Assembly: GCA_035446665.1 (NCBI GenBank)
Contig: DAOTFQ010000001.1
Span: forward strand, 1 to 37,514
DNA from: Candidatus Dojkabacteria bacterium
Lineage (GTDB): Bacteria; Patescibacteriota; Dojkabacteria; SC72
Reading direction: 5' to 3'
Length of the DNA stretch: 37,514 nt
Positions 6,972 through 31,349 of the stretch are shown here, piece after piece (within the stretch, counting starts at the first letter, position 1; each line of letters begins with the position of its first letter). Both the position numbers and the translations under genes were made by a program. Below the pieces are notes generated by a model. It was not told the DNA's origin. It saw only the letters and a list, made by a program, of their open reading frames with translations, and did no database searches.

Positions 6972-7575
6972 AACTCTCTTATTGTTATTTCTTTTGATCA
7001 TTCTCGCTCTCACAGTAATAGCATTTGTTTCTTACCGTAGATACTCTAAATGGGAGAAAGAGGAACTATCTAAACCAGGAATAATCTGTACCTCAGACAT
7101 TACACAGGAGTCTTCTGGGGAGGAAGGTTTGGGAACTGTTATAGAGGACAAAATAAAGAAATTTGCATTGTCAGATACTAAGACAGATTTTGTCGTTTTG
7201 ACAGAAGATGAGATGCTTTATCTATTGCTAGAAAATTTCACAAATGAAGGGGATGTAAAAGTTGAAGATATCTGTCTAAAACCTTCAAAAGGAATTTGGC
7301 AACTATATCTTAAGACCAAATACAAAAAGATATCTCTCCCATGGTTAGTTCTAGATATTGTTAAGGACAATATTGAAACAGCTGAGGTATATGTTAGAGA
7401 AGTGCATCTCGGAGATTTAGAATTTCCAGCTTTTCTGGAGTCTTGGGTAAGAGATGATCTCAACAGGGGGATATCTGATGGGATCATAATGCTGAATGAA
7501 AACAACTTCCTTGGTAGAAGAATAGATAATATAGAGTTACTTGAGGACAGAGTTATATTCAAAGGGACCAGATAG
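6952..7575 (+). CDS. Hypothetical N-terminally membrane-anchored protein
   Basis: 207-aa ORF. The ATG overlaps the murJ 3' end by 20 nt and is preceded by AAGGAAAG about 6 nt upstream. There is a single N-terminal TM (LLLLFLLIILALTVIAFV) and then a soluble domain with no motif I recognise. Confidence 0.6.
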   Translation: MFKKVFKTLLLLFLLIILALTVIAFVSYRRYSKWEKEELSKPGIICTSDITQESSGEEGLGTVIEDKIKKFALSDTKTDFVVLTEDEMLYLLLENFTNEGDVKVEDICLKPSKGIWQLYLKTKYKKISLPWLVLDIVKDNIETAEVYVREVHLGDLEFPAFLESWVRDDLNRGISDGIIMLNENNFLGRRIDNIELLEDRVIFKGTR

Positions 7576-7604
7576 ATTTCCCACAGGTTTTATTCAGCTA
7601 AGAC

Positions 7605-7634
7605 TTGAAGAGAGGCAACCCTGTATGATACAAT
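7605..7634 (+). promoter_or_regulatory. Candidate sigma70-type promoter of groES-groEL (TTGAAG-N18-TACAAT)
   Basis: -35-like TTGAAG at 7605-7610 and -10-like TACAAT at 7629-7634, with 18-nt spacing, 36 nt upstream of the groES ATG. Confidence 0.35.
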
Positions 7635-7637
7635 TCT

Positions 7638-7664
7638 TTGGCAATCGTTAAATTAATCTGCTAA
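7638..7664 (+). promoter_or_regulatory. Degenerate CIRCE-like (HrcA operator-like) element
   Basis: TTGGCAATC-N9-ATCTGCTAA compared with the CIRCE consensus TTAGCACTC-N9-GAGTGCTAA. It matches 7/9 plus 6/9 positions with the exact 9-nt spacer. It sits between the putative -10 and the groES start, as in classical groESL operons. As an inverted repeat it is imperfect (core TTGGCA/TGCTAA). Confidence 0.3.
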
Positions 7665-7669
7665 AAATT

Positions 7670-7969
7670 ATGGAGAAAGATATAAAAATACAACCCATAG
7701 GAAACAGGGTCTTAGTAAAGCCTGACGAAATAGAGGAGAAAACGTCAGGAGGGTTAGTTCTCCCACCTAGTGCAAGCGAAGAGCAAAGGCCTGAAACAGG
7801 GACCGTTGTTAAGCTAGGAAAGGGCAAAATAGATGGCAAAGAAATCTCTTTTGAAGTTTCTGTAGGAGACAGGATCTATTTTAAGAAATATTCTCCGGAT
7901 GAGATTTTAATAGGTGAAGATAAATACCTCTTATTAAATGAAGAGGATATTCTTGCAATTGTTAAGTAA
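7670..7969 (+). CDS. groES: Co-chaperonin GroES
   Basis: 99 aa. IQPIGNRVLVKPDEIEEKTSGGLVLP mobile-loop region and GDRIYFKKY motif, immediately upstream of groEL. Confidence 0.95.
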   Translation: MEKDIKIQPIGNRVLVKPDEIEEKTSGGLVLPPSASEEQRPETGTVVKLGKGKIDGKEISFEVSVGDRIYFKKYSPDEILIGEDKYLLLNEEDILAIVK

Positions 7970-7982
7970 TTAAATTTATTAG

Positions 7983-9623
<1,641 letters not shown>

Positions 9624-14177: not shown

Positions 14178-15773
14178 ATGAAATTAAGTTTTAGAAAAGA
14201 TTTACATATTGCCACCTTAAGATCTGAAGCCCAATGGAATAAATTCAAAGTACAGACCCTTCTTCAAAATACAGAAAGGAAACAACCCTCTGTTAATGCC
14301 TATTTGGGAGCAAGATACAGTAGGTCGGCCGATTCCATCCTAGATATTGCCTCTGAGATTATGAGGAAAAATACAGATGCTGCAGAGAGACTAGAGAAGA
14401 TCTTTGCAGGATATGGCCATAAATCTGTTGGAGATATGGCAGATCTATTTGTTTGTTTAGAGAACGTCCCAATATATCTAGAAACCAAGATGTTCTATTC
14501 TTGTCCAGTAATATCTGGGCAAGGGAGATCCACAAGATACCAGAACTTTCAAGATCCTAACTTTGTTAAGATCCCGAATGAAGTTTGCAAAAATCGTGAA
14601 GTTAGCAGGGAGTATGAGCGAATAATCCTAAAGCAAATGAAGGATTACAGGGAGATGCTGGGTCCAACAAGGGAAGCCCTTAAGAAGCATTTCAGAATCA
14701 ACGAAGAGAGTAATCAAGAGGTTCTAGCCCTAAAGGCAAGAGTATTTGACACTACTAGATACTTTCTCCCTTACGGGCTAAGTACGAGTACTGCCTATTT
14801 AATGTCTGCGAGAAGTTGGTCTGATACTATTAGCTTCATGTGTGCAAGTGATACTGTTGTAGAAAATGAGGTTGCAAGTATGCTTCTTAATCTTCTAGGA
14901 GAATCTAAACTGGATGCTAGAGGTTATATTAGGGAGGCAGACGGACTAATTAGGCACACTGATGCTAATTGTTGCAGAAAAAATTCAACAGATAAAATTC
15001 TAGATTATATGAGAGAGAGTTTCTCCTCAGAGCAAAAGAGGGAGATTCCTGAAAGTGAAAGCTATTCTGTAAAGGTATCCTATTCTCCTGATTGTATGGA
15101 GTCTTTAGTCTCTCACTACGAGTACTTAATAAACCCATTAGGTTCTAGGGAAGAGTTCGAATTCTCAGAGGAGGATCAAGAGAAGTTTGGAGAGATAATA
15201 TTCGAATTGCATGACCACCATAACCAACTTGGGAATATTGGCCAATCTGGAGCAATAAAGATTGAGGGATTTGCTACCTTGGGGACACTGAAAGACCTTA
15301 ATAGACATAGGAGTCTTGAGAGATTCATCCCCTTGTTACATGACCAGGTTGATATGGACAAAGAATTAGACAGGAGGAGTGATCAATGTTTCTATCTTTG
15401 TAATTACTTGGATATAGGGTCTCTCTCAAAAGTTAAGAAAGAATATATAAAGAGATTGTCTGACACCTATGATATGATAAAGGGTTGGAGGGAAATGGCA
15501 AAGCAACACCTTTCCAAAGAGGTTTGTGATGAGTTCACAAAATATCTATTACCACATGCCCATGCGACTAAGTACATCTTTTATGGGTCGTTTGATGATT
15601 TGCAATATCTGATAAACTTAAGAAGTAGAAATGGGGGACATATCTCTTATAGGGTTTTGGTTTATGAATGGCTAAGGAATCTGAGTTATATAGATCCTAT
15701 CTGGAGACCATTATTGAGAAAGATTATAGAGCCGAGGGTAGATGATAAGCATCAGTTTGTAGATAGAGGTTAG
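14178..15773 (+). CDS. thyX: Long two-domain ThyX-like protein (FAD-dependent thymidylate synthase family, tandem/pseudo-dimeric)
   Basis: 531 aa. The N-half has GHKSVGD (compare GHxSxxEH) and S-T-R-Y (compare SxRY), but S-C-P where RHR should be. The C-half has NRHRS (RHR at 15303-15311) and LINLRSRNGGH (compare NLR..HAQ), but no SxRY. The flanking genes are glyA and dcd. Confidence 0.7.
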   Translation: MKLSFRKDLHIATLRSEAQWNKFKVQTLLQNTERKQPSVNAYLGARYSRSADSILDIASEIMRKNTDAAERLEKIFAGYGHKSVGDMADLFVCLENVPIYLETKMFYSCPVISGQGRSTRYQNFQDPNFVKIPNEVCKNREVSREYERIILKQMKDYREMLGPTREALKKHFRINEESNQEVLALKARVFDTTRYFLPYGLSTSTAYLMSARSWSDTISFMCASDTVVENEVASMLLNLLGESKLDARGYIREADGLIRHTDANCCRKNSTDKILDYMRESFSSEQKREIPESESYSVKVSYSPDCMESLVSHYEYLINPLGSREEFEFSEEDQEKFGEIIFELHDHHNQLGNIGQSGAIKIEGFATLGTLKDLNRHRSLERFIPLLHDQVDMDKELDRRSDQCFYLCNYLDIGSLSKVKKEYIKRLSDTYDMIKGWREMAKQHLSKEVCDEFTKYLLPHAHATKYIFYGSFDDLQYLINLRSRNGGHISYRVLVYEWLRNLSYIDPIWRPLLRKIIEPRVDDKHQFVDRG

Positions 15774-16438: not shown

Positions 16439-17797
16439 TTACATGGTTGGTGGTATAGGAGGCATTTCCTCTGGAGTATTATCTGTACTTGGGTTTTGTT
16501 GTAATGTTATAGGTGGCATCTGTGGCTGCGATTCTGGTTGTATAGGTTGTTGTGGAGTCGTTGTTGTTCCCATTGGAGGCTGTTGTGTAGGTATGACTCC
16601 TCCATTTATTTGATTTATATATCCATTAACATTTTCTTGTAAATCTTGAGTAGTATCAGGTTGTTGCGTAGGGTTAGCTACCTCGCTTTCTGGTGCAGAG
16701 GTTATAGGGTTAAAGTCTTGTGTAGGAGGTGTCTGTGGAGCCTCAGGCATAATGTTCTCGGGTCCTTCCTGTTGTTGTGGAACAGAAAAACCTGTGGAGA
16801 AAGGAACTTCCTGGTTAGGCTGTGAAGCCTCAGGTGTCTCCTCTGGAGCATTATCTCCCATAGCTGTTGGAACAAAAGATTCCCTCTGAAGAATTTCTTG
16901 TAAATCTTCTTCTTGAGAAGCACTCGAAATTGTTGGAGTACTCTGTTGTGGAGGTGTATATGTAGGTTGTGCTTGGGGCATCTGTGGTGTATTTTGACTC
17001 ATAGGGATAGGTTCTGGTGCACTCTCCGGATTATTAACCATCTCTTTAAGGGATCTTTCACTTTGTTGCTCTACTCCCATTACCGGAGCCATTTCTTCTT
17101 GCTCTCCTTTTTTGTCTTTTTTCACCTTGGGTTCCTTTGGACCTTTGTTTTTCCCAAGTAAGATTACGACTATACTAATAAGCAATATTACTGAACCAGC
17201 AATTAGGATATAAGGTAAGTATTCAGTTATGTTACTTAATAAGTTTCCTTCTGTAGTTGTAGTGGAGTCTTCTGTTGTTACCATAAGATCTTCGTTGGTT
17301 GTTGGGGTCTCTGTTGTTGTTGGTAGCTCCTCCCCTGTTGTTGTGACATCGTCAGTTGTAGAACCAGCACTTGTTTGTTCGAGGTTGACTGCTTGTCCTA
17401 AAGTAAGTGTATCAAGATCTAATTCGTCAGACTCTACTACCTCAAAAGTTACAGGAGTGTCTCCAGCGGAAGTAAAGCTGATATTTGCGAGGACCCCATC
17501 TAGTGCTGTTGCAGAATCAAGTGTACATGTTATGACTATGGTGTTTTGGCTATCTTGAGACTCTGTATAAGCTAATTCCGAGCATGTGACATCTCCTTCG
17601 GTGACATCTGTTATTTCAACACCCTCCGAGTAGCTTATTGGAAGGGAAACACTCTCTAGAGTGTCTGTCTCAGTATCTATATCAATGGCTACAGAACCGG
17701 TGTCAGCTTCTCTCAAGGCTATATTCACAGCAGCATATGTTGCAAGTGGGAACATAAAGACTCCAGAGGCAATGAAAAGGGCAAATAATTTTTTCAT
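16439..17797 (-). CDS. Type I membrane/surface protein: signal peptide, cohesin-like beta domain, Thr-rich linker, TM, long P/Q/T-rich tail
   Basis: 452 aa. The signal peptide is MKKLFALFIASGVFMFPLATYA. A beta-rich acidic domain spans aa ~23-140. A T/E-rich linker follows, then a TM (YILIAGSVILLISIVVILLG, aa ~194-215), a K-rich stop-transfer segment and a ~235-aa P/Q-rich low-complexity tail. Confidence 0.7.
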   Translation of the reverse strand: MKKLFALFIASGVFMFPLATYAAVNIALREADTGSVAIDIDTETDTLESVSLPISYSEGVEITDVTEGDVTCSELAYTESQDSQNTIVITCTLDSATALDGVLANISFTSAGDTPVTFEVVESDELDLDTLTLGQAVNLEQTSAGSTTDDVTTTGEELPTTTETPTTNEDLMVTTEDSTTTTEGNLLSNITEYLPYILIAGSVILLISIVVILLGKNKGPKEPKVKKDKKGEQEEMAPVMGVEQQSERSLKEMVNNPESAPEPIPMSQNTPQMPQAQPTYTPPQQSTPTISSASQEEDLQEILQRESFVPTAMGDNAPEETPEASQPNQEVPFSTGFSVPQQQEGPENIMPEAPQTPPTQDFNPITSAPESEVANPTQQPDTTQDLQENVNGYINQINGGVIPTQQPPMGTTTTPQQPIQPESQPQMPPITLQQNPSTDNTPEEMPPIPPTM

Positions 17798-17928: not shown

Positions 17929-19161
17929 ATGGAATATTCTAATAATTATAATCCAGCAAATACCACTGTTGTTAATGATGCTCTTGGGGAGAGTCTAAGA
18001 GAAGTTCAAGCACTTGAGGAAAAGTTATCATCTGTGAGTCTTCCAGAGAGATTGAAAGAAGAAGCAATGATGAGTGTATCAAGACTTAAGCGAATGTTTA
18101 AGTTGGGAGGATATAGTGCAGAGTTTGAAACTGTAAGTAAATATATAGATTGGATAACAAGAATCCCTTGGGGGTTAACAAGTGAAGATAACCTCGATAT
18201 CCATAGGGCCAGGAAGATTATGGATGAGACTCACCATGGTATGGACACTATTAAGGATCTGATCCTTGATTACATTGCAACTATGCAACTACAAAGTTCT
18301 GGTGGTGTAGAAAGGCTAAGAAAGGATATTATCCCCTCACAAGTGTATTACCAGAATAATATTTCTCAAGGGTTTCAGAATAAACCAATGGAGAATGATG
18401 TCCAAGTTGGTGTGTTAAGGAGTTCTTCCGCGAATGCTCCAGTATTCCTCTTCTTAGGTCTTCAGGGTGTAGGGAAAACTTCTATTGCAAAATCTATAGC
18501 TCAGTCCATAGGAAGGGAGTTTTCTCGTATATCTTTAGGAGCTATTGGAGATGTTAGAACTTTAAGAGGAGCACCTAGATATTCCCCAGATGCTGAGCCA
18601 GGTCAAATAATTAAATCTCTGGTTAGGTGTGGAACTATGAATCCGGTTATTCTTTTAGATGAGATAGAAAAGGCGAGTGGTAACAAAGGACTTCTTAGTG
18701 ATATTATGGCTGTTCTGCTTGAGATATTAGATCCTGAACAGAATTCTACATTCGTAGATCATTATATTGACTATCCAGTAGATCTCTCCAAGGTCTTTTT
18801 CATATGTACAGCAAATAATTTAGGTGGTCTTTCTGCAGCACTACTAGATCGTGTAGAAGTTATTCGCTTTACTAGTTATTCTGATCAAGAGAAGGAAGTG
18901 ATTGGGAAGGAATATATTTTACCAAAAGTGCTAAAGAATCTTAATATCTCTCCAGAATATATAAAGATAGAGGAGGAGGTGTGGCCTTTAATAATTAGAC
19001 CTGTGGGATTTGATGCAGGTATCAGACAATTAGAAAGAAATATTACAACCATTGTAAGGAGTGCAGCAAGGATGATTGTTGAAGGGAAACCTTTGCCTAT
19101 TGTTATAAATAGTTCAAACCTAACTGATTACGTCCTTGCAGATCAAGGACCACTTAGTTAG
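17929..19161 (+). CDS. Stand-alone Lon-like AAA+ module lacking the N-terminal LAN domain and the S16 protease domain
   Basis: 410 aa, colinear with the Lon ATPase region. Matching segments: LPERLKEEAMMSVSRLKRM, YIDWITRIPWGLTSEDNLDI..A.KIMDETHHGM, Walker A GLQGVGKTS (18457-18483), Walker B ILLDEIEK (18649-18672), LEILDPEQNSTFVDHY, LLDRVEVIRFTSYSDQEK and AGIRQLER. It ends at ...NLTDYVLADQGPLS, the position where the Lon protease domain normally starts. Confidence 0.85.
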   Translation: MEYSNNYNPANTTVVNDALGESLREVQALEEKLSSVSLPERLKEEAMMSVSRLKRMFKLGGYSAEFETVSKYIDWITRIPWGLTSEDNLDIHRARKIMDETHHGMDTIKDLILDYIATMQLQSSGGVERLRKDIIPSQVYYQNNISQGFQNKPMENDVQVGVLRSSSANAPVFLFLGLQGVGKTSIAKSIAQSIGREFSRISLGAIGDVRTLRGAPRYSPDAEPGQIIKSLVRCGTMNPVILLDEIEKASGNKGLLSDIMAVLLEILDPEQNSTFVDHYIDYPVDLSKVFFICTANNLGGLSAALLDRVEVIRFTSYSDQEKEVIGKEYILPKVLKNLNISPEYIKIEEEVWPLIIRPVGFDAGIRQLERNITTIVRSAARMIVEGKPLPIVINSSNLTDYVLADQGPLS

Positions 19162-19174
19162 TTGTCGTAGAGAA

Positions 19175-19411
19175 TTATATTCCTCTAAATGGATTTGAAA
19201 GTCTAAGAGAGGAGACTGCCTTTCTTATCTTTGGACTCCCCCTTCCCTTTGGAATGCTCGGTCTGTTTTGTTGTTTCTCCTCAGCTTTTGATAGCAGAGA
19301 GAGGTCCATTCCTTGTTGAATTGGATCTATCTTTTTAGGATTAACGCCCTCTGTTACAAGGTAGTTGGAGACCTCAAAATCTCCACCGTTGTTTGTATTA
19401 GAGTTGCTCAT
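19175..19411 (-). CDS. Small hypothetical protein (78 aa from the internal ATG), translationally coupled to the VirB4-like gene
   Basis: The track ORF is 19175-19435. The ATG at 19409-19411 is preceded by GAGGA with a 5-nt spacer and lies 14 nt inside the VirB4-like 3' end. No TM is present. The C-terminus is basic (PKGRGSPKIRK). Confidence 0.4.
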   Translation of the reverse strand: MSNSNTNNGGDFEVSNYLVTEGVNPKKIDPIQQGMDLSLLSKAEEKQQNRPSIPKGRGSPKIRKAVSSLRLSNPFRGI

Positions 19412-21878
19412 TCTTATCCTCTGGATAACTTTCAATTAATCCCTGCGGAGTTAAATGTGTTTTACCTTTCTGAATATCTTCACGAGATTGGACTGCCTGG
19501 CCGGAGATGGTATTGCTTTTAATCCTATCTAAGACACTTTTCTCTTTTTCCAATTTGTCCGGATTTAGCTGCTCTTCTTGTTCTCTTAGTTTTTTTTCTA
19601 TCTCCTTCTGGTATTCTGTCCTCTCCATCTGTATGGTGTCTCTCTGTTCCTGAGTTCTCTGCACAGCTTCTTCAATTATTTCTTCTTGTCTGGACATCCC
19701 CTTCCTGTCCTTCATAGTTCTCTGTTCTGTTGGAGGTTCATATATTTCAGACAACTCTTCTAGTGTTCTAGTATCTGTTTGACCTTCCCTTTCTCTAAGT
19801 TTTTCTAGGTCTCGAGGGTCAGAGGTTATTAATTCATGTTCAGATAAACTAGATAAGACTTGGATTCCCACATGATTGGAACCTGCAAAGAACAATCCCT
19901 GTCCTTGATCGCAGTTAAGTAGGAAGTTCTTCTCTCCGTCAGAGAGGTTAAAGACCTGTTGCAGTTTCTCCACTGCTGTTGGGCTTTGCATCATTAGCAT
20001 CTGTATGGAAGAGTTTGAGATTATTGCTTTACCCATATCATTGTTTAAGAAGTCTGCAACGTCTTGGGTGATTGTTGATAGCCCAAGGTAATATTTTCTT
20101 GCTCTTTTTGCAATCGAATACATAAACTTAGCAGAGTCTTCAGATTGCATCATGTACCAAGCCTCGTCCACTATCAATAATCTTCTCTTTCTTTCCTTTC
20201 TAATCTTGGTCCATATGAAGTCCAGCATGAGATACATAGCAAGAGGTTTTAACTCTTCCTGTAGGTCTCTAACACTAAAGACTGTAAAAGGATTGTTTAT
20301 CTCAAAGTTACTAGCTTCGTTGAAAACCCCAGCACCACTTCCAATGATATATTTCTCCAACCTTCTTGCGAGACCATGAGCCTCTGTTTCTGCCATTCCC
20401 TTTAAGACCTTGTATAAATCTTCTAGAAGGGGAGGAGTTTTGGTTTGTGTGTTAGGGTCAAATGTTATTCCTTTCTCACGATAGGTGAGTATAAGTGCTC
20501 GATCTAGAATAGAGGCCTCTATGTTAGAAAGTTGGCCGAGCATAACCTTAAAGAATCCCTGTAAAGCCAGGAGTTTCATTCTTAGTTCATCATCCCCCTC
20601 ATCTTTTACTCCTGAAAGTTCGAATGGATTCATTTTGTTACCTTTATCTTGGGAGAATGAGATATATGCTCCATTAACAGCTTTTGCTAAGTCTTCATAT
20701 TCTCGTTCTGGGTCAATGATAAGAATCTCTGTCCCAAGCATTAGGCTTCTTACAGCTTCCAGTTTGACGAAATAACTCTTACCAGCTCCAGACTTTGCAA
20801 ATATAACTGCATTAGCATTCTCCAAATCGAAACGGTCAAAGATTACCAAACTTCTATTATGGAGATTTAGCCCATACATAATTCCATGATCCATGGTAAG
20901 TTCAGAAGTTACGAATGGGAATGTGGTTGCCAGAGAGGTAGTATCCATATTTCTAGTTATGTACATACTGTCTAGCCCAAGTGGTTGTGAACTTATGAAT
21001 CCTTGCTCCTGTTGTAAGGTCGCAGGTTTTGCGGTTACATTTATAGCGGCTAGAGTTGAGGTGACATTTCTAGAAATCTTCTCAAGAGTATCTTTGTCTC
21101 GAGCATAGAGGGTTATGTACATAGAGAAGTGGAAGAACTTTTCTGTTCCTTCTGCAATAGAATCTTGTAGTTGTTGAGCGTCTGCTAGAGCAACCTTTAG
21201 TGAAGGATCTACAACTTTTCTATCCTCCATCTGTGAATAGAGAGAAGCCTCCATTTCTCCAATTTTCTTTTTAAGTTTTTCTAAAATAGTTTTATTATCT
21301 ACGGGATAGTAGAAGGTACTGATTCTTAAGGAGTGTTCAAAATTAATTATTGGGGAGAGCCAATTAGGTCCAACAAATCTAGGGTAACCACTCACAAATA
21401 ATGTCTTGAAGAAGTAGTCTCCTATCTGTAAGTGATTAAAATCTATTTCCAGATCTATTGGGGCAACTATGTCTTGTATGGACATATCGGATGGGATTAA
21501 TTCTCTTACACTATGTGGGTCATTGTCCACGTAGTTGCTTTCCTCAAAATCCTCATCTTTGTTCTCTTCTTCTTCCGGTTTTTCTTCTGGTTCATTTTTA
21601 TTTGATTTCCCAAGCAACTCAGTGAGGTTATCCATAACTTTTGTGATAATATTCCCCCCTTTCTTCTTTTTCTCTTCCTCTTCTAAAACCTTGGTATCAT
21701 TGTATCTGATTTTATCTTCTTTGGTCTCCTCTTTTACTTCCTCTTTAAGTTTTGAAACCTCTTGTTGGAATGTGACATACTTCTCTCCAGTTGTCTTAAA
21801 CTGTTCGGAGTGTTGTTCCAACTTTTGAGTGGTTTTGGTCTCAAATGATTTGTTATAGTTGTTTTGTATCTCATCCAT
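19398..21878 (-). CDS. VirB4/TrbE/CagE-like type IV secretion ATPase with long charged N- and C-terminal extensions
   Basis: 826 aa. The VirB4-type N-domain reads LQIGDYFFKTLFVSGYPRFVGPNWL. Walker A is AKSGAGKS (20775-20798), Walker B is RRLLIVDEAW (~20163-20180), and an STITQDVADF motif is present. Aa 1-125 and aa ~690-826 are E/K/Q-rich and probably coiled or disordered. Confidence 0.85.
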   Translation of the reverse strand: MDEIQNNYNKSFETKTTQKLEQHSEQFKTTGEKYVTFQQEVSKLKEEVKEETKEDKIRYNDTKVLEEEEKKKKGGNIITKVMDNLTELLGKSNKNEPEEKPEEEENKDEDFEESNYVDNDPHSVRELIPSDMSIQDIVAPIDLEIDFNHLQIGDYFFKTLFVSGYPRFVGPNWLSPIINFEHSLRISTFYYPVDNKTILEKLKKKIGEMEASLYSQMEDRKVVDPSLKVALADAQQLQDSIAEGTEKFFHFSMYITLYARDKDTLEKISRNVTSTLAAINVTAKPATLQQEQGFISSQPLGLDSMYITRNMDTTSLATTFPFVTSELTMDHGIMYGLNLHNRSLVIFDRFDLENANAVIFAKSGAGKSYFVKLEAVRSLMLGTEILIIDPEREYEDLAKAVNGAYISFSQDKGNKMNPFELSGVKDEGDDELRMKLLALQGFFKVMLGQLSNIEASILDRALILTYREKGITFDPNTQTKTPPLLEDLYKVLKGMAETEAHGLARRLEKYIIGSGAGVFNEASNFEINNPFTVFSVRDLQEELKPLAMYLMLDFIWTKIRKERKRRLLIVDEAWYMMQSEDSAKFMYSIAKRARKYYLGLSTITQDVADFLNNDMGKAIISNSSIQMLMMQSPTAVEKLQQVFNLSDGEKNFLLNCDQGQGLFFAGSNHVGIQVLSSLSEHELITSDPRDLEKLREREGQTDTRTLEELSEIYEPPTEQRTMKDRKGMSRQEEIIEEAVQRTQEQRDTIQMERTEYQKEIEKKLREQEEQLNPDKLEKEKSVLDRIKSNTISGQAVQSREDIQKGKTHLTPQGLIESYPEDKNEQL

Positions 21879-22519
21879 TATTCTTCTTCATCAGGGTTAT
21901 ATATTGTATAGAATTCTGATAATAACTCCTTAGTTGTCAACTGGTGGCCGAAAAGACCCATTCTACTAAGTTGTTTAAGGATGTGATCTCTTTTAGGGAA
22001 CAGAAATATCTTTGCTTTCTCTAACAATTGATCCATTTTCATTTGGCTCATTCTCTCTTGCTCCTCTTTGTTTTTCTTTGAATCTAAGATATTGGCTCCT
22101 GGTATAGGTGCTCCTGGGCTGTAAGGAACGACTATGAAGAAGTTCTTGTCGAGGACATCATTTTGGATAATTAATTTCTGAACGAAGTTTGTGTATATAT
22201 TCAACTGCTTTTTGAGGCCTTCACTCATCTGTCTCTGGTCCATAGTAGTTTTTAAGTAGTCTATGTAGTTTGATATATCTATTCTTTTTGTTCTAATGAG
22301 AATCTGTATTCTAAAATTGAGAGAGTTTAGGAGTCCAGCAAAGGCATATATCTTATTGTCTTGTTCATACTCTGCAAGGAGGTCAAAGTTGATAGAAGAT
22401 GTTTGTATAACCATTGCCACACCGCCTTGTGTAGTTATTATTAAATCATCTTGGATATCTTTTATCCCGAGGTGATCTTGTGTTGATGCTGTTGCTCTTG
22501 CTCTCGCTTTTTTATCCAC
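21878..22519 (-). CDS. Hypothetical soluble protein resembling the N-terminal domain of monoderm VirB4-type ATPases
   Basis: 213 aa. A GTG start at 22517-22519 lies 1 nt after the upstream TAG. Its TAA overlaps the VirB4-like ATG (TAATG). The pattern IKDIQDDLIITTQGGVAMVIQTSSINFDLLAEYEQD..IYAFAGLLNSLNFRIQILIRTKRIDISNYIDYL recalls the first ~200 aa of Gram-positive conjugative VirB4 homologues. This is from memory only. Confidence 0.65.
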   Translation of the reverse strand: MDKKARARATASTQDHLGIKDIQDDLIITTQGGVAMVIQTSSINFDLLAEYEQDNKIYAFAGLLNSLNFRIQILIRTKRIDISNYIDYLKTTMDQRQMSEGLKKQLNIYTNFVQKLIIQNDVLDKNFFIVVPYSPGAPIPGANILDSKKNKEEQERMSQMKMDQLLEKAKIFLFPKRDHILKQLSRMGLFGHQLTTKELLSEFYTIYNPDEEE

Positions 22520-22520
22520 C

Positions 22521-23357
22521 CTATACAGTACTAATTTTAATTGGCAACTTATTTTTCTTATTTGTCACTTCTAGCTGAACCTTCGGGAATTCATATGTAG
22601 GATGTTGAAATTCTAGCATATATATCCCAGGTTCCCATAATTTGTTTGTTAGGAAATAACCACTTTCTCCAGTTTTGTTTGCATAAAGGATTTTACCATC
22701 TGAAGACTTTAAATATACAATGACATTTGGAACTGGTTTCGAATCCTTAGTTGATAACCAAAAATTTATATTTCCAGGTAATTTGTCTGTACTTGCTATA
22801 TTGAATTGGTACTTAGATATATTCTCTTCTGTAATTATGAGGATGTTAGAAGAGGGTAGAACTGCAGTAAGTTGTGGATCTACATTAAGTTCCTCATCTA
22901 GCATATCCCTAGGGTCATTATCTTCAATCTCAACTGCATCCTTCCTTGTGGGAAGACTCTCCCCGATAATTTTCTTCTTTTTAGTTTTAATATCTTTGGG
23001 AATTAATTTACCCTCTTCATCTGGTTTAAGCTCTGGTTTGGCTCCTTTTTCTTTTAGTTCCTTATTTAACCAGACTCTCTGTGTAGGGTTCGTTATAGCT
23101 GTGATGTAATTTTTTATGAAGACGTCTGCATCCTGCTCGTTTATTGGAACAAGACCAAGGAAAGCCCCTAGTCCAGATGACACAACAAAAATAGGAATTC
23201 CAAGTATAGGAGGGATGATGTCTGACACTACTAGGTATATCATGATACCTCCAATACCGAATCCTATTGCTAGGTAAGCAAATTCCTTGAGAGTAAACTT
23301 TGTAAAGAGTTTAAACTCAACGTCCAGTATATTTTGCGGAATTGCATGTTGTCTCAT
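22521..23357 (-). CDS. PrgI/VirB3-like two-TM protein fused to a C-terminal carboxypeptidase-regulatory-like beta-sandwich
   Basis: 278 aa. The N-terminus (HAIPQNILDVEFKLFTKFTLKEFAYLAIGFGIGG...) plus two TMs is the PrgI-family pattern. A K/E-rich linker follows. The C-terminus (NVIVYLKSSDGKILYANKTGESGYFLTNKLWEPGIYMLEF, nt ~22563-22775) looks CarboxypepD_reg-like. Confidence 0.7.
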   Translation of the reverse strand: MRQHAIPQNILDVEFKLFTKFTLKEFAYLAIGFGIGGIMIYLVVSDIIPPILGIPIFVVSSGLGAFLGLVPINEQDADVFIKNYITAITNPTQRVWLNKELKEKGAKPELKPDEEGKLIPKDIKTKKKKIIGESLPTRKDAVEIEDNDPRDMLDEELNVDPQLTAVLPSSNILIITEENISKYQFNIASTDKLPGNINFWLSTKDSKPVPNVIVYLKSSDGKILYANKTGESGYFLTNKLWEPGIYMLEFQHPTYEFPKVQLEVTNKKNKLPIKISTV

Positions 23358-23479
23358 ATGTAGGCAGATTTTACTATTTTTTCTATATAAAGTTTACCAG
23401 AATATTGAATATACTTACAATGTTGGGTGTTTTTAAATTCTAATCTAAAGACTTTATTGCAATGGTTAGGTTTTAGAAG

Positions 23480-23491
23480 TGGTATCATAAT
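23480..23491 (+). promoter_or_regulatory. Extended -10-like box (TGgTATCAT / CATAAT) 6-9 nt upstream of the nucleotidyltransferase gene ATG
   Basis: TGgTATCAT at 23480-23488 overlaps CATAAT at 23486-23491. The ATG is at 23498 and there is no SD. Confidence 0.3.
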
Positions 23492-23497
23492 GGTTGT

Positions 23498-24304
23498 ATG
23501 GCAATCAGATACGAAAAATTTGAAGAACTTCTTAAATTTAGAAAAGCAATGGGATTAAGTCTCTCCAGAGAGAGGATTAAATATATCTGGGGGAGGCGGT
23601 TTCTTAGAGAAGTGGATGAACTAGAAATAAATGGGAGTGGGTACGATTTTCCTGTTAATAAAAATAGCAAAGATTTAGGGAAGGAGTCTTTAGAGAAGTT
23701 AGAAATAGCGAAAGGGGAACTCTCTAAGCTCAAGGTATTTAATTGGGTTAGGTTTGTGGGCGTGTCTGGTTCTGTTGCAGCTGGCTTTGCAAAGGAGAGT
23801 GACGATATCGATATTTTTGTAGTAGTTAGGAATGGGACCATGTGGCTTTACAGGGGGATTATTGTGTTCAGAAATATCTTTCATAACAAGATTCGAGCAA
23901 AAAGACATAAGGATGTAAGGGATAAGTTATGTGTAAATTTAATCTGTGAGGAGCGTGGCCTAGAATTCCCAAATGACATTTTTAATATGCATGAACTACT
24001 CTTCCTAATCCCTATATATAATGAAAAGTACAAGAGGTATGTTCTCTCCATGAATCCCTGGTTAGAAAGTGATTTCTGTGTTAAGAAGGAATTGCTTAGG
24101 TCAAGAACGGTACCCAAGAAAAAGGTTTTCTTTGTGCTTAGATTTTTTAACTTTCTTGCCTTTGTTGGACAGTTAATCTTTATGTTTATCTCTGGGCATA
24201 ATCCCGAAACCAAGAGGCTAGTCGAGAACTATAGAAAAGGGAGGATAGAATTTTTTGAATACGAATTTCGAGTAGAGAAGTTGAAGGGATATCTCAATGA
24301 ATAG
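23498..24304 (+). CDS. Pol-beta-superfamily nucleotidyltransferase-like protein with a C-terminal hydrophobic segment
   Basis: 268 aa. GVSGSVAAGFAKESDDIDIFVVV fits the G-S...D-x-D minimal NTase motif. A hydrophobic stretch (VFFVLRFFNFLAFVGQLIFMFIS) lies near the C-terminus. The stop abuts the convergent recF stop. Confidence 0.6.
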   Translation: MAIRYEKFEELLKFRKAMGLSLSRERIKYIWGRRFLREVDELEINGSGYDFPVNKNSKDLGKESLEKLEIAKGELSKLKVFNWVRFVGVSGSVAAGFAKESDDIDIFVVVRNGTMWLYRGIIVFRNIFHNKIRAKRHKDVRDKLCVNLICEERGLEFPNDIFNMHELLFLIPIYNEKYKRYVLSMNPWLESDFCVKKELLRSRTVPKKKVFFVLRFFNFLAFVGQLIFMFISGHNPETKRLVENYRKGRIEFFEYEFRVEKLKGYLNE

Positions 24305-27228: not shown

Positions 27229-27789
27229 CTATTCAACGGTTATTGTCATGTCAAATAGTTCAGAGAACTGAACGCCAGAGAGATTCTCTAGGGCAAGGAA
27301 GATAATTACTTTCTCTGATGGTAGAACACTTATTTTCTGTTCGTATGTTTCTCCAGTGTTGTCTTGTAGTAGATAAGGAGTTTCTTTTTCTTGTAGGTAT
27401 ATCTTTGATCTTGTATTGCTAAGTGTTTGGCCCCAGAAAGAGAGAACTTTCTTTTCTTCAGTGTTGTTCTGTATCTCCAGAATTGGTTTTGAATAGGAGT
27501 CTGCACCTCTTTTCCCAATCCTTGCAGAGTAGGCATATTCTGTTTCGTCTATTTTGTTAAGACTCTCTCCAGAGAATATCTCGTGTTGTCCTCCTACTAG
27601 TCTAAGGACGAGTTCATCTTGGGTAGTTACACCCAAAACGTCTATTTTCTTAATTTGTTTTGTTATTGGAGTTAAGTTCATTACTGTTACTACTGGAAGT
27701 ATGAAGAAAAGGGCTAGTAAGCCGAGTGCAAAAGGTTCTAGTATTTGTGTGAATACCTTTTTAAATTCTTCTTTCTTTGCCATTCTCAA
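27229..27789 (-). CDS. Hypothetical N-terminally anchored protein
   Basis: 186-aa ORF with one N-terminal TM (ILEPFALGLLALFFILPVVTVM) and a beta-rich soluble part. No motif recognised. Confidence 0.55.
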   Translation of the reverse strand: MRMAKKEEFKKVFTQILEPFALGLLALFFILPVVTVMNLTPITKQIKKIDVLGVTTQDELVLRLVGGQHEIFSGESLNKIDETEYAYSARIGKRGADSYSKPILEIQNNTEEKKVLSFWGQTLSNTRSKIYLQEKETPYLLQDNTGETYEQKISVLPSEKVIIFLALENLSGVQFSELFDMTITVE

Positions 27790-27794
27790 AGTAA

Positions 27795-28343
27795 TTAATA
27801 ATAACTGTTTTCTTTAGGATATATCTTATCAGTTTCTAATTCAAATGTCCTTATAGTTCCCCATATAGAGAGGAGCGAGGCTACACCTGCGCTTACGCCT
27901 ACCCAGCTATATGTTTGACCTTGCAATGTGTGTGCTATTACGATAATTGATGCAATAGTGAGAAAAGAGGTCCATATGAATATGTGTAGGAAAGTTACAT
28001 CCTTTTTTGTTACCCACTTCAGAATATTGAACTTTGTTATCTTTACTAAAGTTCTTGGATTTTGGAGTGTGGTTTGGTATATGGAGGTTTTGATTATGAA
28101 GTAGAGGGTAGGAACTGCTAGGAACAGAAACATCGTCAGGTTTGAAATAGAGTTCACAAAGAGAGTAACGTTATTGTCTGTAAAGAGGATTTGTATTGAG
28201 GTAAGTCCCTCTATGTCGTTTTCTATGAAGAACTCTAAATCGTATATCATTGAAGGCACTATTATCCCGATTGCTTTCCCAGCAATCATCAAGATTGCAG
28301 GGGTTATGGATATTTTAAGCGCTCTTTTTAGCAGTTTTGACAT
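27795..28343 (-). CDS. Hypothetical polytopic membrane protein
   Basis: 182-aa ORF with 4-5 hydrophobic segments. It overlaps the rpsT 3' end by 29 nt (an alternative ATG lies at 28292). Confidence 0.55.
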   Translation of the reverse strand: MSKLLKRALKISITPAILMIAGKAIGIIVPSMIYDLEFFIENDIEGLTSIQILFTDNNVTLFVNSISNLTMFLFLAVPTLYFIIKTSIYQTTLQNPRTLVKITKFNILKWVTKKDVTFLHIFIWTSFLTIASIIVIAHTLQGQTYSWVGVSAGVASLLSIWGTIRTFELETDKIYPKENSYY

Positions 28344-28678: not shown

Positions 28679-28706
28679 TTGTAAACATTTTTATTTGTGT
28701 TACACT
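28679..28706 (+). promoter_or_regulatory. Candidate promoter TTGTAA-N16-(TGt)TACACT, ending 6 nt before the ATG at 28713
   Basis: -35-like hexamer at 28679-28684, TG at 28698-28699, -10-like hexamer at 28701-28706, spacer ATTTCT, then ATG. This supports the MRRSR start and a leaderless mRNA. Confidence 0.35.
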
Positions 28707-28712
28707 ATTTCT

Positions 28713-29144
28713 ATGAGGAGGAGTAGATTGTTTAAGCTTTTTGTATTTTTGTTTTTTGTATTTTCGGTTGCTTCAGCTGTTTCTGTTTATGTTGTCCATT
28801 ACCAGGAGTCTATGGAAGAAGATATTTCAGAGAATGTCCTAGGAGTTAGGAATCCTACGGGGGTCCCTTACATAATTAACTTACCTCCCTTGGTCGTTAG
28901 GGAAGGGGAGGTTTATGAGTATAGGGTGAGGGTTTTGGATAGTGATACGGAGATAGAAGGTCTAGAACTGGAGTATATGGAAGGGCCTGAATGGCTCAAC
29001 TTAGAGGGTTTTGTTCTTAAGGGTGTTGCCCCAAGTGCAAGTAGGGGGACTTACAAAATTGTTTTGAAAGTTTCGGATGGGTATAATAGCTCTACTAAAG
29101 AGGATTATATATTAGTGGAGGAGAGTTTGGAGGATGTCGAATAA
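28713..29144 (+). CDS. Small membrane-anchored protein with one cadherin-like/putative Ig (He_PIG-like) domain
   Basis: The track ORF starts at a TTG at 28695. I prefer the ATG at 28713 (MRRSRLFKLFVFLFFVFSVASAVS signal/anchor). PPLVVREGEVYEYRVRVLDSD...GTYKIVLKVSDG is the putative-Ig-domain pattern. Confidence 0.6.
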   Translation: MRRSRLFKLFVFLFFVFSVASAVSVYVVHYQESMEEDISENVLGVRNPTGVPYIINLPPLVVREGEVYEYRVRVLDSDTEIEGLELEYMEGPEWLNLEGFVLKGVAPSASRGTYKIVLKVSDGYNSSTKEDYILVEESLEDVE

Positions 29145-29547
29145 AAAAAAGAAGATTTACATGTTGTCTTTGCTTGCTTTTATACTGTTAGGTTCAGGTC
29201 TTTTTTTGTTGTTCTCTAAAGATACAGGAGAGTTGGAAGTTAAGGGAATAGCTGGAAAGGATTGTGTCCCATACAATATCTTTGTTATGCCAGGGGAGAA
29301 TGATTATTCTGTTGAGATATCTTGGAAGACCAGATCTGAATGTCTAGGTTTTGTCCTTTATGGTCAGGATAGGGGCAACTTAGATATGGTAGGGGTGGAT
29401 CTTGTAAATGAAAGTAGCTCTAGGGATCATAATGTAACAATAGAGGGATTGCTTAGGAGAGAAAGATATTACTTTCTAGTGAACTCTCAGGATCAGGCTT
29501 ATGGAAATAATGGATCTCCTTTGGAATTTGTTATAGAGAATCTTTAA
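29134..29547 (+). CDS. Small membrane-anchored protein with one FN3-like domain
   Basis: 137 aa. The N-terminal TM is IYMLSLLAFILLGSGLFLLF. SVEISWKT...GFVLYGQD...HNVTIEGLLRRERYYFLV matches the FN3 / purple-acid-phosphatase-N-like pattern. It overlaps the previous ORF by 11 nt. Confidence 0.6.
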   Translation: MSNKKKKIYMLSLLAFILLGSGLFLLFSKDTGELEVKGIAGKDCVPYNIFVMPGENDYSVEISWKTRSECLGFVLYGQDRGNLDMVGVDLVNESSSRDHNVTIEGLLRRERYYFLVNSQDQAYGNNGSPLEFVIENL

Positions 29548-31349
29548 GATTTCTTTTTCTTGTTCTTAGATACCTTTCTTACTAACTTCGTTTCGAAGTA
29601 TTTCTTAGGTTTGAATATCTTCCATGAGAACACTTCTGCTTCTTTGTAAGCTCCAGAGTTTATTAACTTTTCTATCATTGTCTGGCCCATAGGTCTTGAG
29701 TAGATATACCAACCAACTGTGACGACTAGCATTCCAAGGAGAATTCTACTAATTACGGAATCAAAGATTCCTGTCTCTGGTGTTGTCTCTGAATCTGGTT
29801 CCTCAGCAACTGGTGTCTCCTCATCATCCACGGGAGCTTCTTCTTCAGTACAACTCTGTGCTACATTTAGGATAAGTTCTGCTCTGAGTGTCTCTGGATC
29901 TTCAGGTATTTCCGCAGGTGTTATTACTACTTCGTTCTGGTTTTCTCCTGTTAGAGCATTTTCTCCAGCTTCTGATATGAAGGCTATTGTTAATGATTGA
30001 CCACTATTAACGGACCAGCCTTCTGTTTTCTCCCATACTACTTCTTGAGTATCCCCAATGTTTGTTGTTGTTACAAATTTTGTATCATCTACCTTAACTC
30101 CATTTATCTTTGTTGAATCTGCCACATATGTAAACCCTAGTGGCAGTTTATCCTTGACCGAGTAGATTATCTGGGCTGTTGTGCTGTCGTTCACTGTTTT
30201 TAGTGTAAACTCTACAACGTTGTTCGGTGTTACTCTCTCTATACATTTGACGTTTGAGGTTTTGGAAACCCTGAATTTGGATTCTTCTGCTTCTTGTAAT
30301 TCTTCAGAGGTAGGATCCATTTGTGGGAAGTTAAAGGACGTATCTACTGTTCCGATTACTTCTGTGTCGGATCTGACCTCAGCAGTTATTTTTATATTCC
30401 CAACCTTACGGTCGAGTTGAGAGAAACTTAGGTCTGTACTGAAGTTCTCACTATTATAAAGGTCCTGTTCTAGAATAGAGATTTCACCTTTAGTGCTGTC
30501 TATCGTAAAGCCATCTGTCATTGAGAGATCACCCACGCCAGAATCTTCTGGCCCAAAAGAGAATCTTATTGTTAATGGTGTGTCATCTTTAATATTTCCA
30601 ATTCCTATCTTAATTCTAGAGACTTTGTAAGTGTCTTCGTCTTTTCTTGTTTGTACTTGCATTGTGCTAACACTTGCAGAAGTTGTCTGTTCTACCTCGA
30701 TAAGTCTTCTACATATGGGGGAGTTTATTTGGTTTGCACTAGCATCTGATGCTGTTGCAAAGATATTCAAAGTAGAGGTATCTAACTCTGTATAGGTCTT
30801 TGTTATGGTCAATGAATCTGGAGATATGGAGTCTGGTTCAACCTCTTGATTGTTGATCACAAATTTGTGACCTGTATAAACAGCATCAAACTTAGCTTCA
30901 ATGGTTAACTCCTTCTCATCTAGGGGGATTTTCCCAGTAACAATTTTGCCAGCGCTATCCTTTATTGTCATCTCTGAACATCTGCTATCTTGAACCACTG
31001 GGAGGGTACAGATTTGGTAGAGATCTTGTTTAGTTGTGCTGTTTAATAGGTTTGTTGAAAGGTTATCAATGGAACATGGTGTGCTACAATTCTGGTTGCT
31101 AGGAACAGTATTTAGTTCAAAAGAGAATCCTCTTCTAGGGTCTCCACATTCAGATACGACTTTTGGATCTATGTAATAACAGGCACAAGTTGTTTCCGTT
31201 AAGGTCTGTTCGCCTTCAGGTTCCTCTAAGGTATAAAAATAAACGGCTGAGATAATAAGCCCTATACCTAAAATAGCAGCGATTACGATTAATAGGGTTG
31301 TACTCTTTTTCTTTTCACTTGTGGTGGAAACTCTTCTGACTTCTTCCAT
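29544..31349 (-). CDS. Large surface protein: N-terminal anchor, Cys-rich region, beta-rich repeats, DUF11-like domain, acidic linker, TPETG + TM + basic tail
   Basis: 601 aa. The N-terminal TM spans aa ~18-38, and seven Cys lie in aa 55-124. The DUF11-like pattern is VSKTSNVKCIERVTPNNVVEFTLKTVNDSTT..VKDKLPLGFTYV. TPETG (29769-29783) is followed by a hydrophobic segment and a K-rich tail. Its stop overlaps the convergent 137-aa gene stop (TTAA at 29544-29547). Confidence 0.75.
   Translation of the reverse strand: MEEVRRVSTTSEKKKSTTLLIVIAAILGIGLIISAVYFYTLEEPEGEQTLTETTCACYYIDPKVVSECGDPRRGFSFELNTVPSNQNCSTPCSIDNLSTNLLNSTTKQDLYQICTLPVVQDSRCSEMTIKDSAGKIVTGKIPLDEKELTIEAKFDAVYTGHKFVINNQEVEPDSISPDSLTITKTYTELDTSTLNIFATASDASANQINSPICRRLIEVEQTTSASVSTMQVQTRKDEDTYKVSRIKIGIGNIKDDTPLTIRFSFGPEDSGVGDLSMTDGFTIDSTKGEISILEQDLYNSENFSTDLSFSQLDRKVGNIKITAEVRSDTEVIGTVDTSFNFPQMDPTSEELQEAEESKFRVSKTSNVKCIERVTPNNVVEFTLKTVNDSTTAQIIYSVKDKLPLGFTYVADSTKINGVKVDDTKFVTTTNIGDTQEVVWEKTEGWSVNSGQSLTIAFISEAGENALTGENQNEVVITPAEIPEDPETLRAELILNVAQSCTEEEAPVDDEETPVAEEPDSETTPETGIFDSVISRILLGMLVVTVGWYIYSRPMGQTMIEKLINSGAYKEAEVFSWKIFKPKKYFETKLVRKVSKNKKKKS

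Follow-up and report, generated by a model that had tools for sequence, protein, structure and literature searches.

A conserved prgI–trsD–virB4 operon of Dojkabacteria as the probable energising core of a Patescibacteria-clade type IV secretion system

Type IV secretion systems (T4SS) occur commonly in the Patescibacteria, or candidate phyla radiation (CPR), where VirB4 was identified in 2,417 of 3,035 genomes and forms a monophyletic clade nested within MPF-FATA (Quiñonero-Coronel et al. 2025; PMC12102498). In these chromosomal systems, TrsD is the commonest partner of virB4 (1,664 near virB4), PrgI/VirB3 is found near virB4 in 880 cases, and relaxases are present in only 103 of the 3,035 genomes. 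VirD4 homologues were detected in 2,918 genomes, the genes for VirD4-like and VirB2-like proteins usually lying far from virB4. Dojkabacteria assemblies are scored as VirB4-positive in that study, the preprint of which names the class explicitly. Transposon sequencing has shown that the T4SS of Southlakia epibionticum, a cultivated Saccharibacterium, is essential for epibiotic growth, although neither a coupling protein nor a relaxase can be recognised in it (Wang et al. 2023; PMC10633639), and possible T4SS pili or tubular structures were reported where a cultivated patescibacterium, which takes up RNA from its host, meets that host (preprint 10.64898/2026.06.21.733656). Here we describe four adjacent genes, encoding PrgI/VirB3-like, TrsD-like, VirB4-family and small 78-aa proteins, in a 37.5-kb stretch of the Candidatus Dojkabacteria contig DAOTFQ010000001.1 (the window hereafter, meaning the whole stretch that was analysed). 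This module is very probably the cytoplasmic-membrane energising core of a Patescibacteria-clade T4SS, derived from monoderm MPF-FATA systems and resident in the chromosome of Dojkabacteria (candidate division WS6).

The four genes are co-directional, occupy positions 19175-23357 of the minus strand and are located between housekeeping genes. As in the described patescibacterial systems, the locus is chromosomal, TrsD and PrgI/VirB3 adjoin virB4, and no relaxase is found nearby. The features of the module, in the order of transcription, are the following (TM, transmembrane; pLDDT, predicted local distance difference test of the AlphaFold2 model; ORF, open reading frame).

22521..23357, minus strand: prgI-like gene, 278 aa, PrgI/VirB3-like membrane anchor
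aa 6-95 (23073-23342), minus strand: PrgI domain, Pfam PF12666, 32.5 bits against a gathering score of 27
aa 23-44 and 50-69, minus strand: TM hairpin of the PrgI protein, from a TM scan and the AlphaFold2 model (pLDDT 75-90)
aa ~100-170, minus strand: Lys-rich disordered linker of the PrgI protein
aa 171-278 (22524-22847), minus strand: C-terminal transthyretin/CnaB-like beta-sandwich of the PrgI protein (pLDDT 85-91)
21878..22519, minus strand: TrsD/'TraC-like' gene, 213 aa, GTG start, soluble product
19398..21878, minus strand: virB4-family ATPase gene, 826 aa
aa 1-130, minus strand: charged N-terminal extension of VirB4
aa ~135-345 (20844-21476), minus strand: N-domain of VirB4
aa 350-685 (19824-20831), minus strand: ATPase domain of VirB4
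aa 361-368 (20775-20798), minus strand: Walker A motif, AKSGAGKS
aa 567-574 (20157-20180), minus strand: Walker B motif, LLIVDEAW
aa ~690-826 (19401-19811), minus strand: charged C-terminal extension of VirB4
19417..19421, minus strand: Shine-Dalgarno-like motif GAGGA, read directly, 5 nt upstream of the ATG of the small ORF and within the 3' end of virB4
19175..19411, minus strand: small gene, 78 aa from ATG, no TM segment
19178-19207, minus strand: invariant basic tail L.L.NPF(K/R)G at the C-terminus of the small protein

The 826-aa protein scores 391.1 bits against NCBIfam NF045971, the 'VirB4-like conjugal transfer ATPase, CD1110 family', for which the curated cutoff is 325, and the alignment (residues 26-672 to model positions 81-734 of 752) spans both the N-domain and the ATPase domain. 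Further matches are to Pfam P-loop_TraG (92 bits) and to the VirB4 of the monoderm Thermoanaerobacter (PDB 4ag5, E=2.3e-48), and the closest plasmid-encoded VirB4 proteins are at most 38% identical to it. In four distant Dojkabacteria orthologues the core is 67-76% identical, with invariant Walker A and B motifs; the presence of the two terminal extensions (~130 and ~140 aa) is conserved, their sequence less so. Scores remain below the curated cutoffs of TIGR00929 (VirB4/CagE; 119.8 versus 643 bits), TraC-F (186.9 versus 567) and TrbE (33 versus 1020), and by these profiles the protein is a relative, but not a member, of the proteobacterial VirB4/CagE, TraC-F and TrbE subfamilies.

The 278-aa protein surpasses the Pfam threshold for PrgI/VirB3, carries the two-helix TM hairpin and is encoded directly upstream of virB4 in a conserved order; its relatives bear the name 'PrgI family protein [Ca. 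Dojkabacteria]'. A phmmer search of this protein against PDB sequences returned noise only, and the fold of its C-terminal beta-sandwich was recognised through structure prediction and Foldseek, the closest solved folds being the carboxypeptidase-D regulatory (transthyretin-like) domain, CnaB2 and transthyretin. The fusion of PrgI to the beta-sandwich is kept in Dojkabacteria orthologues. Given the two TM helices and the Lys-rich flanks, the beta-sandwich is predicted, speculatively, to lie in the cytoplasm, even though surface proteins are where such a fold is typically found.

The 213-aa protein would seem to belong to the TraC-like superfamily, as a remote TrsD-like member. A precomputed Pfam match assigns it to PF26593 (TraC-like; unmarked, E<=1e-5), which was not recovered with our local Pfam copy, a result taken to mean that the copy lacks that model. 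It matches NCBIfam TrsD/TraD (NF041427) with 32.1 bits and E=9.5e-8, and its residues 8-131 align with positions 99-233 of VirB4_plasma, the VirB4 of mycoplasma integrative conjugative elements (ICE), with E=1.5e-8, both scores being below the curated cutoffs. Pfam TraC_F_IV is matched by 10 of 39 diverse relatives. Likewise, for the AlphaFold2 model (pLDDT 81, predicted template-modelling score 0.71) the top 13 Foldseek matches in the PDB are all TrwK/VirB4 of R388 (probability 0.87-1.0), so that profile and fold matches both point to the VirB4 N-domain, whereas BLASTP found no similarity to the adjacent VirB4 and phmmer against PDB sequences gave only noise. The family comprises 1,541 representatives at 50% identity, and the TrsD-like protein is 72-96% identical over more than 100 clusters. 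The 213-aa protein is a free-standing, TrsD-like paralogue of the VirB4 N-domain, of a kind canonical in MPF-FATA systems, and therefore not a lineage-specific novelty.

Direct reading of the sequence confirmed how the genes are joined. The prgI-like gene ends in TAG, followed after 1 nt by the GTG of the 213-aa gene (22523-22517); the stop codon of the latter overlaps the start of virB4 in TAATG (21880-21876); and the ATG of the small gene (19411-19409) lies 14 nt within the virB4 3' end. These three tight junctions, of a few nucleotides or overlapping, are repeated across ~70 species. Translation of the four genes is thus coupled. Between prgI and a divergent nucleotidyltransferase-like gene lie 140 nt of intergenic DNA (23358..23497), which would be the probable promoter region of the operon; its candidate promoters are weak sigma-70-like matches (9/12 at 23437-23408, minus strand), and a promoter and terminator scan found a match count in 23358-23497 that was not clearly higher than in shuffled sequence. 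Just downstream of the small ORF, within the 3' end of a convergent Lon-like gene, is an inverted repeat with perfectly matching 7-bp arms (19132-19150; minus-strand sequence GTCCTTG-atctg-CAAGGAC), which has no T-run and was not called by the terminator scan.

A preceding inspection of the DNA alone, without database searches (the sequence-only reading), had delineated these four ORFs, all of which are present, and had described the same TAG-1 nt-GTG, TAATG and 14-nt overlap junctions with GAGGA. Its identification of a VirB4-like ATPase with an N-domain and Walker motifs is borne out by the CD1110 score and by both motifs being intact. The profile searches it had suggested accordingly place the 826-aa protein in the VirB4 family, and the PrgI assignment of the 278-aa N-terminus stands above the gathering score. 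Its proposal that the 213-aa ORF is a lineage-specific accessory has to be abandoned, given that TrsD/TraC-like proteins are a standard part of Gram-positive MPF-FATA conjugation systems.

Related loci were gathered with a VirB4 alignment and their ±8 kb flanks compared in 80 species-representative genomes. The order LepA–RecF–(nucleotidyltransferase-like, optional)–PrgI–TrsD-like–VirB4–small ORF recurs in these genomes, followed by the convergent gene for a Lon-like AAA protein and then by Dcd/ThyX/SHMT/FolD (SHMT, serine hydroxymethyltransferase). The window corresponds to a whole metagenome contig (ENA ERZ795053 NODE_925), and the metagenome-assembled genome GCA_964509465.1 contains it as well. 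Named homologues are nearly all from Candidatus Dojkabacteria/candidate division WS6, a class of Patescibacteria/CPR. Locus L083 is the single outlier: there the four genes have moved as a block and are surrounded by HrcA–GrpE–DnaK, the Lon-like gene having stayed behind, and these four genes therefore constitute the unit. The G+C content of the module, 0.35-0.40, is the same as that of its flanks. Because the module occupies the same chromosomal site (recF, module, Lon-like AAA) in ~80 species, it is vertically inherited and not a fragment of an ICE. Taken together, these data point to a chromosomal operon that is passed on vertically and is subject to strong purifying selection.

This conservation bears directly on two other explanations. 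The presence at the locus of only three or four of the usual at least ten T4SS genes might be taken as a sign that an integrated conjugative element is decaying here and that what remains of it no longer has a function. The reading frames, however, are intact, the conservation of the VirB4 core and its Walker motifs extends across distant species, that of the TrsD-like protein across more than 100 clusters, and the coupling is kept in ~70 species, from which strong purifying selection follows; with the synteny also fixed, we reject decay, the probability of which is close to nil. A functional conjugation system, with the relaxase, type IV coupling protein (T4CP) and channel genes elsewhere in the genome, would agree with the assignment of VirB4 to the conjugative CD1110 family and with the frequent separation of T4CP genes from virB4, VirD4 homologues occurring in 2,918 Patescibacteria genomes (PMC12102498). 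This is nonetheless very unlikely, considering the rarity of relaxases in the same survey and the vertical inheritance of the module, which keeps to one housekeeping site and bears no mark of mobility.

The surroundings of the module are likewise devoid of recognisable conjugation genes. Pfam and NCBIfam scans of window ORFs of at least 137 aa outside the module detected no relaxase, VirD4, VirB6, VirB8, VirB1 or integrase families, and no tRNA is present in the window, as the sequence-only reading had stated. Eight window ORFs have no family assignment, and a lenient Pfam search (E<=1) yielded no VirB6, VirB8 or VirB2 match, very divergent components being possible. By synteny, no relaxase, T4CP, VirB6 or integrase occurs within ±8 kb of ~80 related loci, and neither the 37.5-kb window nor these flanks contain a complete conjugative T4SS or ICE. 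An ordinary ICE or plasmid fragment, which the sequence-only reading had named as the finding that would overturn it, is not indicated either, no relaxase, VirD4 or integrase being adjacent to the module in the window. The description of the module as minimal and without other conjugation genes thus holds for ~±15 kb here and for ±8 kb in ~80 relatives, but not as a claim about whole genomes.

The absence of neighbours also concerns the proposal that the core serves pilus assembly only, extracting VirB2-like pilins encoded elsewhere and polymerising them into an attachment filament, with no substrate being translocated. VirB2-like pilin arrays are widespread and essential in Patescibacteria (PMC12102498, PMC12857230), VirB4 has a known role in pilus biogenesis (PMC12102498), and the tubular structures seen at the parasite–host interface (10.64898/2026.06.21.733656) would fit such a filament. 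No VirB2-like gene was found in the window or in the ±8-kb flanks of ~80 relatives, and we regard a machine restricted to pilus assembly as rather unlikely, if the most plausible of the alternatives.

The small ORF is a real gene. It is present in 70 of the 75 species loci with enough downstream sequence, its overlap with the virB4 3' end is usually 8-26 nt, its homologues form 44 clusters, and the gene is called in public records, as 78 aa, the longest frame being 86 aa from a TTG. The C-terminal L, N, P, F and G are 100% conserved and the last 25 aa have a mean net charge of +4, whereas the body evolves fast (mean pairwise identity of 39%). The convergent Lon-like gene does not account for this conservation, given that there is hardly any overlap between the two. 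The protein matched no family in Pfam or NCBIfam, including in the lenient Pfam scan (E<=1), and it seems restricted to Dojkabacteria. Hence, of the two families that the sequence-only reading had put forward as lineage-specific companions of VirB4, the 78-aa one co-occurs with it as proposed and the 213-aa one is not lineage-specific. A positively charged C-terminal tail of this kind recalls T4SS C-terminal secretion signals. Speculatively, the basic-tailed protein might be a VirB4-associated regulator, adaptor or substrate. A bolder variant, in which Dojkabacteria run a truly minimal T4SS composed of PrgI, TrsD and VirB4 without VirB6, VirB8 or pilin, and in which the 78-aa protein is a dedicated new component, either a secreted substrate or a plug or regulator docking on the VirB4 C-terminal extension, strikes us as improbable.

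We thus favour the energising core of a Patescibacteria-clade T4SS. By analogy with the R388 complex (7o41/8rtb), the PrgI hairpin would tether VirB4 hexamers to the membrane through the VirB4 N-domain, and TrsD, with the same fold as that domain, would join or extend the N-domain collar. ATP hydrolysis by VirB4 would power both the building of an envelope channel or pilus and transport through it; its other parts (VirB6-like, VirB2-like) may be encoded elsewhere or be too divergent to recognise. As suggested by the literature on relatives, the machine may have been repurposed from conjugation to contact-dependent exchange of macromolecules with a host cell, either export of effectors or uptake of host material, which would sustain an epibiotic lifestyle.

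Several observations weigh against this interpretation. Neither the window nor the ±8 kb of the relatives shows a recognisable VirB6, VirB8, VirB2, VirB1 or VirD4, and the channel is therefore assumed rather than seen. The function in Dojkabacteria is extrapolated from Saccharibacteria. The TrsD score of the 213-aa protein, 32 bits, is far under the NCBIfam cutoff of 200; its Foldseek TM-scores are modest (~0.4), with the aligned region of TrwK unreported; and hhalign of the family profile against the VirB4 N-domain (four Dojkabacteria sequences) and full-length VirB4 found nothing, a null that we judge uninformative because the template is very shallow (effective number of sequences ~1.3). 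Finally, many of the related metagenome-assembled genomes are labelled 'Saccharibacteria', the organism names resting on record titles.

With regard to these labels, many genomes in which VirB4 is 60-92% identical and the synteny is that of Dojkabacteria carry the title 'uncultured Candidatus Saccharibacteria bacterium', while one goes under Nomurabacteria and another under Microgenomates; the labels look generic or incorrect.

On balance, the broad proposal of the sequence-only reading, a T4SS-derived VirB3/VirB4 module domesticated in a CPR chromosome, is upheld, with no mobility genes nearby. It is not, as had been suggested, an uncharacterised system, given that relaxase-free chromosomal VirB4–TrsD–PrgI T4SS are already described across Patescibacteria (PMC12102498) and essential in a relative (PMC10633639). 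Two elements appear not to have been described before, namely the small protein with the NPF(K/R)G tail, whose gene is coupled to virB4, and the PrgI–beta-sandwich fusion, neither of which was found mentioned in PMC12102498 or PMC10633639.

Among T4SS, that of Patescibacteria was the first to be reported as essential for the growth of its bearer, and it is a leading candidate for material exchange between ultrasmall epibionts and their hosts. The locus described here adds no new principle; it shows the strong conservation and coupling of the PrgI–TrsD–VirB4 core in Dojkabacteria. The PrgI–beta-sandwich fusion and the NPF(K/R)G-tailed protein could guide structural work on the minimal core, and if Dojkabacteria truly lack VirB6 and pilins, theirs would be the smallest natural T4SS.

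The annotatable genes of the window outside the module are all housekeeping or envelope-related, in line with the housekeeping flanks noted earlier: DnaK, ComF-like, MurJ, GroEL, ABC transporter, FolD, SHMT, ThyX, Dcd and Lon-like AAA, as well as RecF, LepA, S20, HolA, LytR, YceG, RuvX and alanyl-tRNA synthetase. The Lon-like protein (17929-19161, plus strand) consists only of the Lon AAA+ module and lid (TIGR00763 positions 253-567 of 795), without the protease domain or a full N-domain, and its gene converges on the T4SS operon with a 13-nt gap. The gene holds this position in almost all of the ~80 Dojkabacteria species and is absent from the site in L083; a functional link to the module was considered and rejected, the association being merely syntenic and lost in that locus. 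On the other side, the divergent nucleotidyltransferase-like gene between recF and prgI (23498-24304, plus strand) is found in most species loci but is missing in about a dozen, and hence is not part of the module.

Several other window genes are unusual in their own right. At 531 aa, the ThyX homologue (14178-15773, plus strand) is roughly double the normal size and contains two Thy1 stretches; this length is conserved in other Dojkabacteria loci, and the protein may be a tandem-fused ThyX. A 601-aa surface protein (29544-31349, minus strand) has an N-terminal TM segment, a DUF11/CnaB-like repeat and a C-terminus with 'TPETG', a TM segment and a basic tail, resembling a sortase sorting signal; beside it are two small bitopic Ig/FN3-like proteins (28695-29547, plus strand), all syntenic across Dojkabacteria. 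Two conserved unannotated membrane proteins are encoded between S20 and LepA (27229-28343, minus strand) in all related loci, one of 182 aa with 3-4 TM helices and a 29-nt overlap with the S20 gene, the other of 186 aa with one TM helix, and neither has a Pfam family even at E<=1; they are possible candidates for divergent VirB6/VirB8. A 452-aa protein (16439-17797, minus strand), in which a signal peptide and a single TM helix are combined with an acidic ectodomain of ~170 aa and a long tail rich in Pro and Gln, occurs in only a subset of Dojkabacteria, an aminotransferase being found at the same site in other loci. Finally, a 789-aa protein (1978-4347, plus strand) with ~12 TM helices and C-terminal TPR repeats, matched by Pfam in the TPR part only, is probably a glycosyltransferase or O-antigen-ligase-like envelope protein and not VirB6.

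Among known systems, the module is most similar to the Patescibacteria-clade T4SS (PMC12102498, PMC10633639), which are also chromosomal, relaxase-free, MPF-FATA-derived and built on VirB4, TrsD and PrgI/VirB3, and which are likewise carried by reduced-genome CPR bacteria, Dojkabacteria being among the listed carriers. The Saccharibacteria locus SEML1_0006-0019 differs in having VirB6, peptidoglycan hydrolases and an array of VirB2-like pilins beside virB4, none of which is visible within ±8-15 kb here, and in its site, dnaA/dnaN as opposed to recF/lepA in Dojkabacteria. Conversely, the extra C-terminal transthyretin/CnaB-like domain of PrgI and the coupling of an NPF(K/R)G-tailed small gene to virB4 set the Dojkabacteria apart from the published patescibacterial systems.

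The module also resembles Helicobacter ComB and archaeal Ced in being T4SS-derived, driven by a VirB4-type ATPase and repurposed away from conjugation, which brings up DNA uptake, i.e. a ComB- or Ced-like competence importer powered by VirB4 and working with ComF/ComEC. A ComF-family gene is indeed present in the window (4333-5055), but it is 14 kb distant, with unrelated housekeeping genes in between. recF is adjacent to the module as part of a long housekeeping block with complete synteny, and in L083 the two are no longer neighbours. The proximity of comF, recG and radA to the T4SS in the class ABY1 (PMC12102498) and the absence of nucleotide synthesis in Patescibacteria would also suit an importer. 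VirB4 does match archaeal CedB, but weakly, with 59.8 bits, far under the cutoff of 700, and CedD scores 20.6 against 600; of the components that ComB (ComB2-4 and ComB6-10) and Ced (CedA/A1/A2) require, no equivalents of ComB2/3/6-10 and no CedA/A1/A2 were found here. Furthermore, as a 2025 review stresses, S. epibionticum loses competence but stays viable when comEC is deleted, in contrast to its essential T4SS (PMC12857230), and the essential role of that T4SS is therefore not ComEC-dependent DNA uptake. The ComB/comF idea raised from the sequence alone is weakened by the same two points, the distance of comF and the dispensability of comEC, and we hold a DNA-uptake machine to be improbable.

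For the energising core itself, the structural template is the TrwM(VirB3)–TrwK(VirB4) complex of R388 (PDB 7o41, 8rtb, 8rtd), in which the VirB3 TM hairpin binds the VirB4 N-domain and TrwK chains of which are the best PDB matches of the 213-aa model. Unlike the module, the R388 system is of the diderm MPF-T type, includes VirB6/8/10 as well as an outer-membrane complex, and lacks a free-standing TrsD; the sequence similarity of the ATPases is marginal (E ~3e-3).

The same VirB4 family is shared with the MPF-FATA conjugation systems of Firmicutes (pGO1/pSK41 TrsC-TrsD-TrsE; pIP501 TraD-TraE; the CD1110 family of the Clostridioides difficile conjugative transposon), although these clusters are plasmid- or ICE-borne, contain a relaxase and an SLT/VirB1 hydrolase besides VirD4 and VirB6, and reach no more than 38% sequence identity to the module. 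The cluster of Clostridium botulinum pCDC3875 has the order VirD4, VirB6, PrgI, VirB4-NTD-like, VirB4, small ORF, SLT. Its 328-aa ORF between prgI and virB4 (7384-8370 of the plasmid locus, L008), recorded as 'hypothetical protein', matches the N-terminal half of the CD1110 VirB4 model (E=6e-28) and, to judge from this match, is a free-standing VirB4-N-domain paralogue analogous to TrsD, unannotated in the record. With hhalign, no homology was detected between this ORF and the 213-aa family, or between the small-ORF alignment and the 92-aa ORF downstream of virB4 in pCDC3875. The local order of the core is nevertheless the same in the plasmid cluster and in Dojkabacteria, and the Dojkabacteria operon thus looks like an ancestral MPF-FATA core block stripped of its neighbours.

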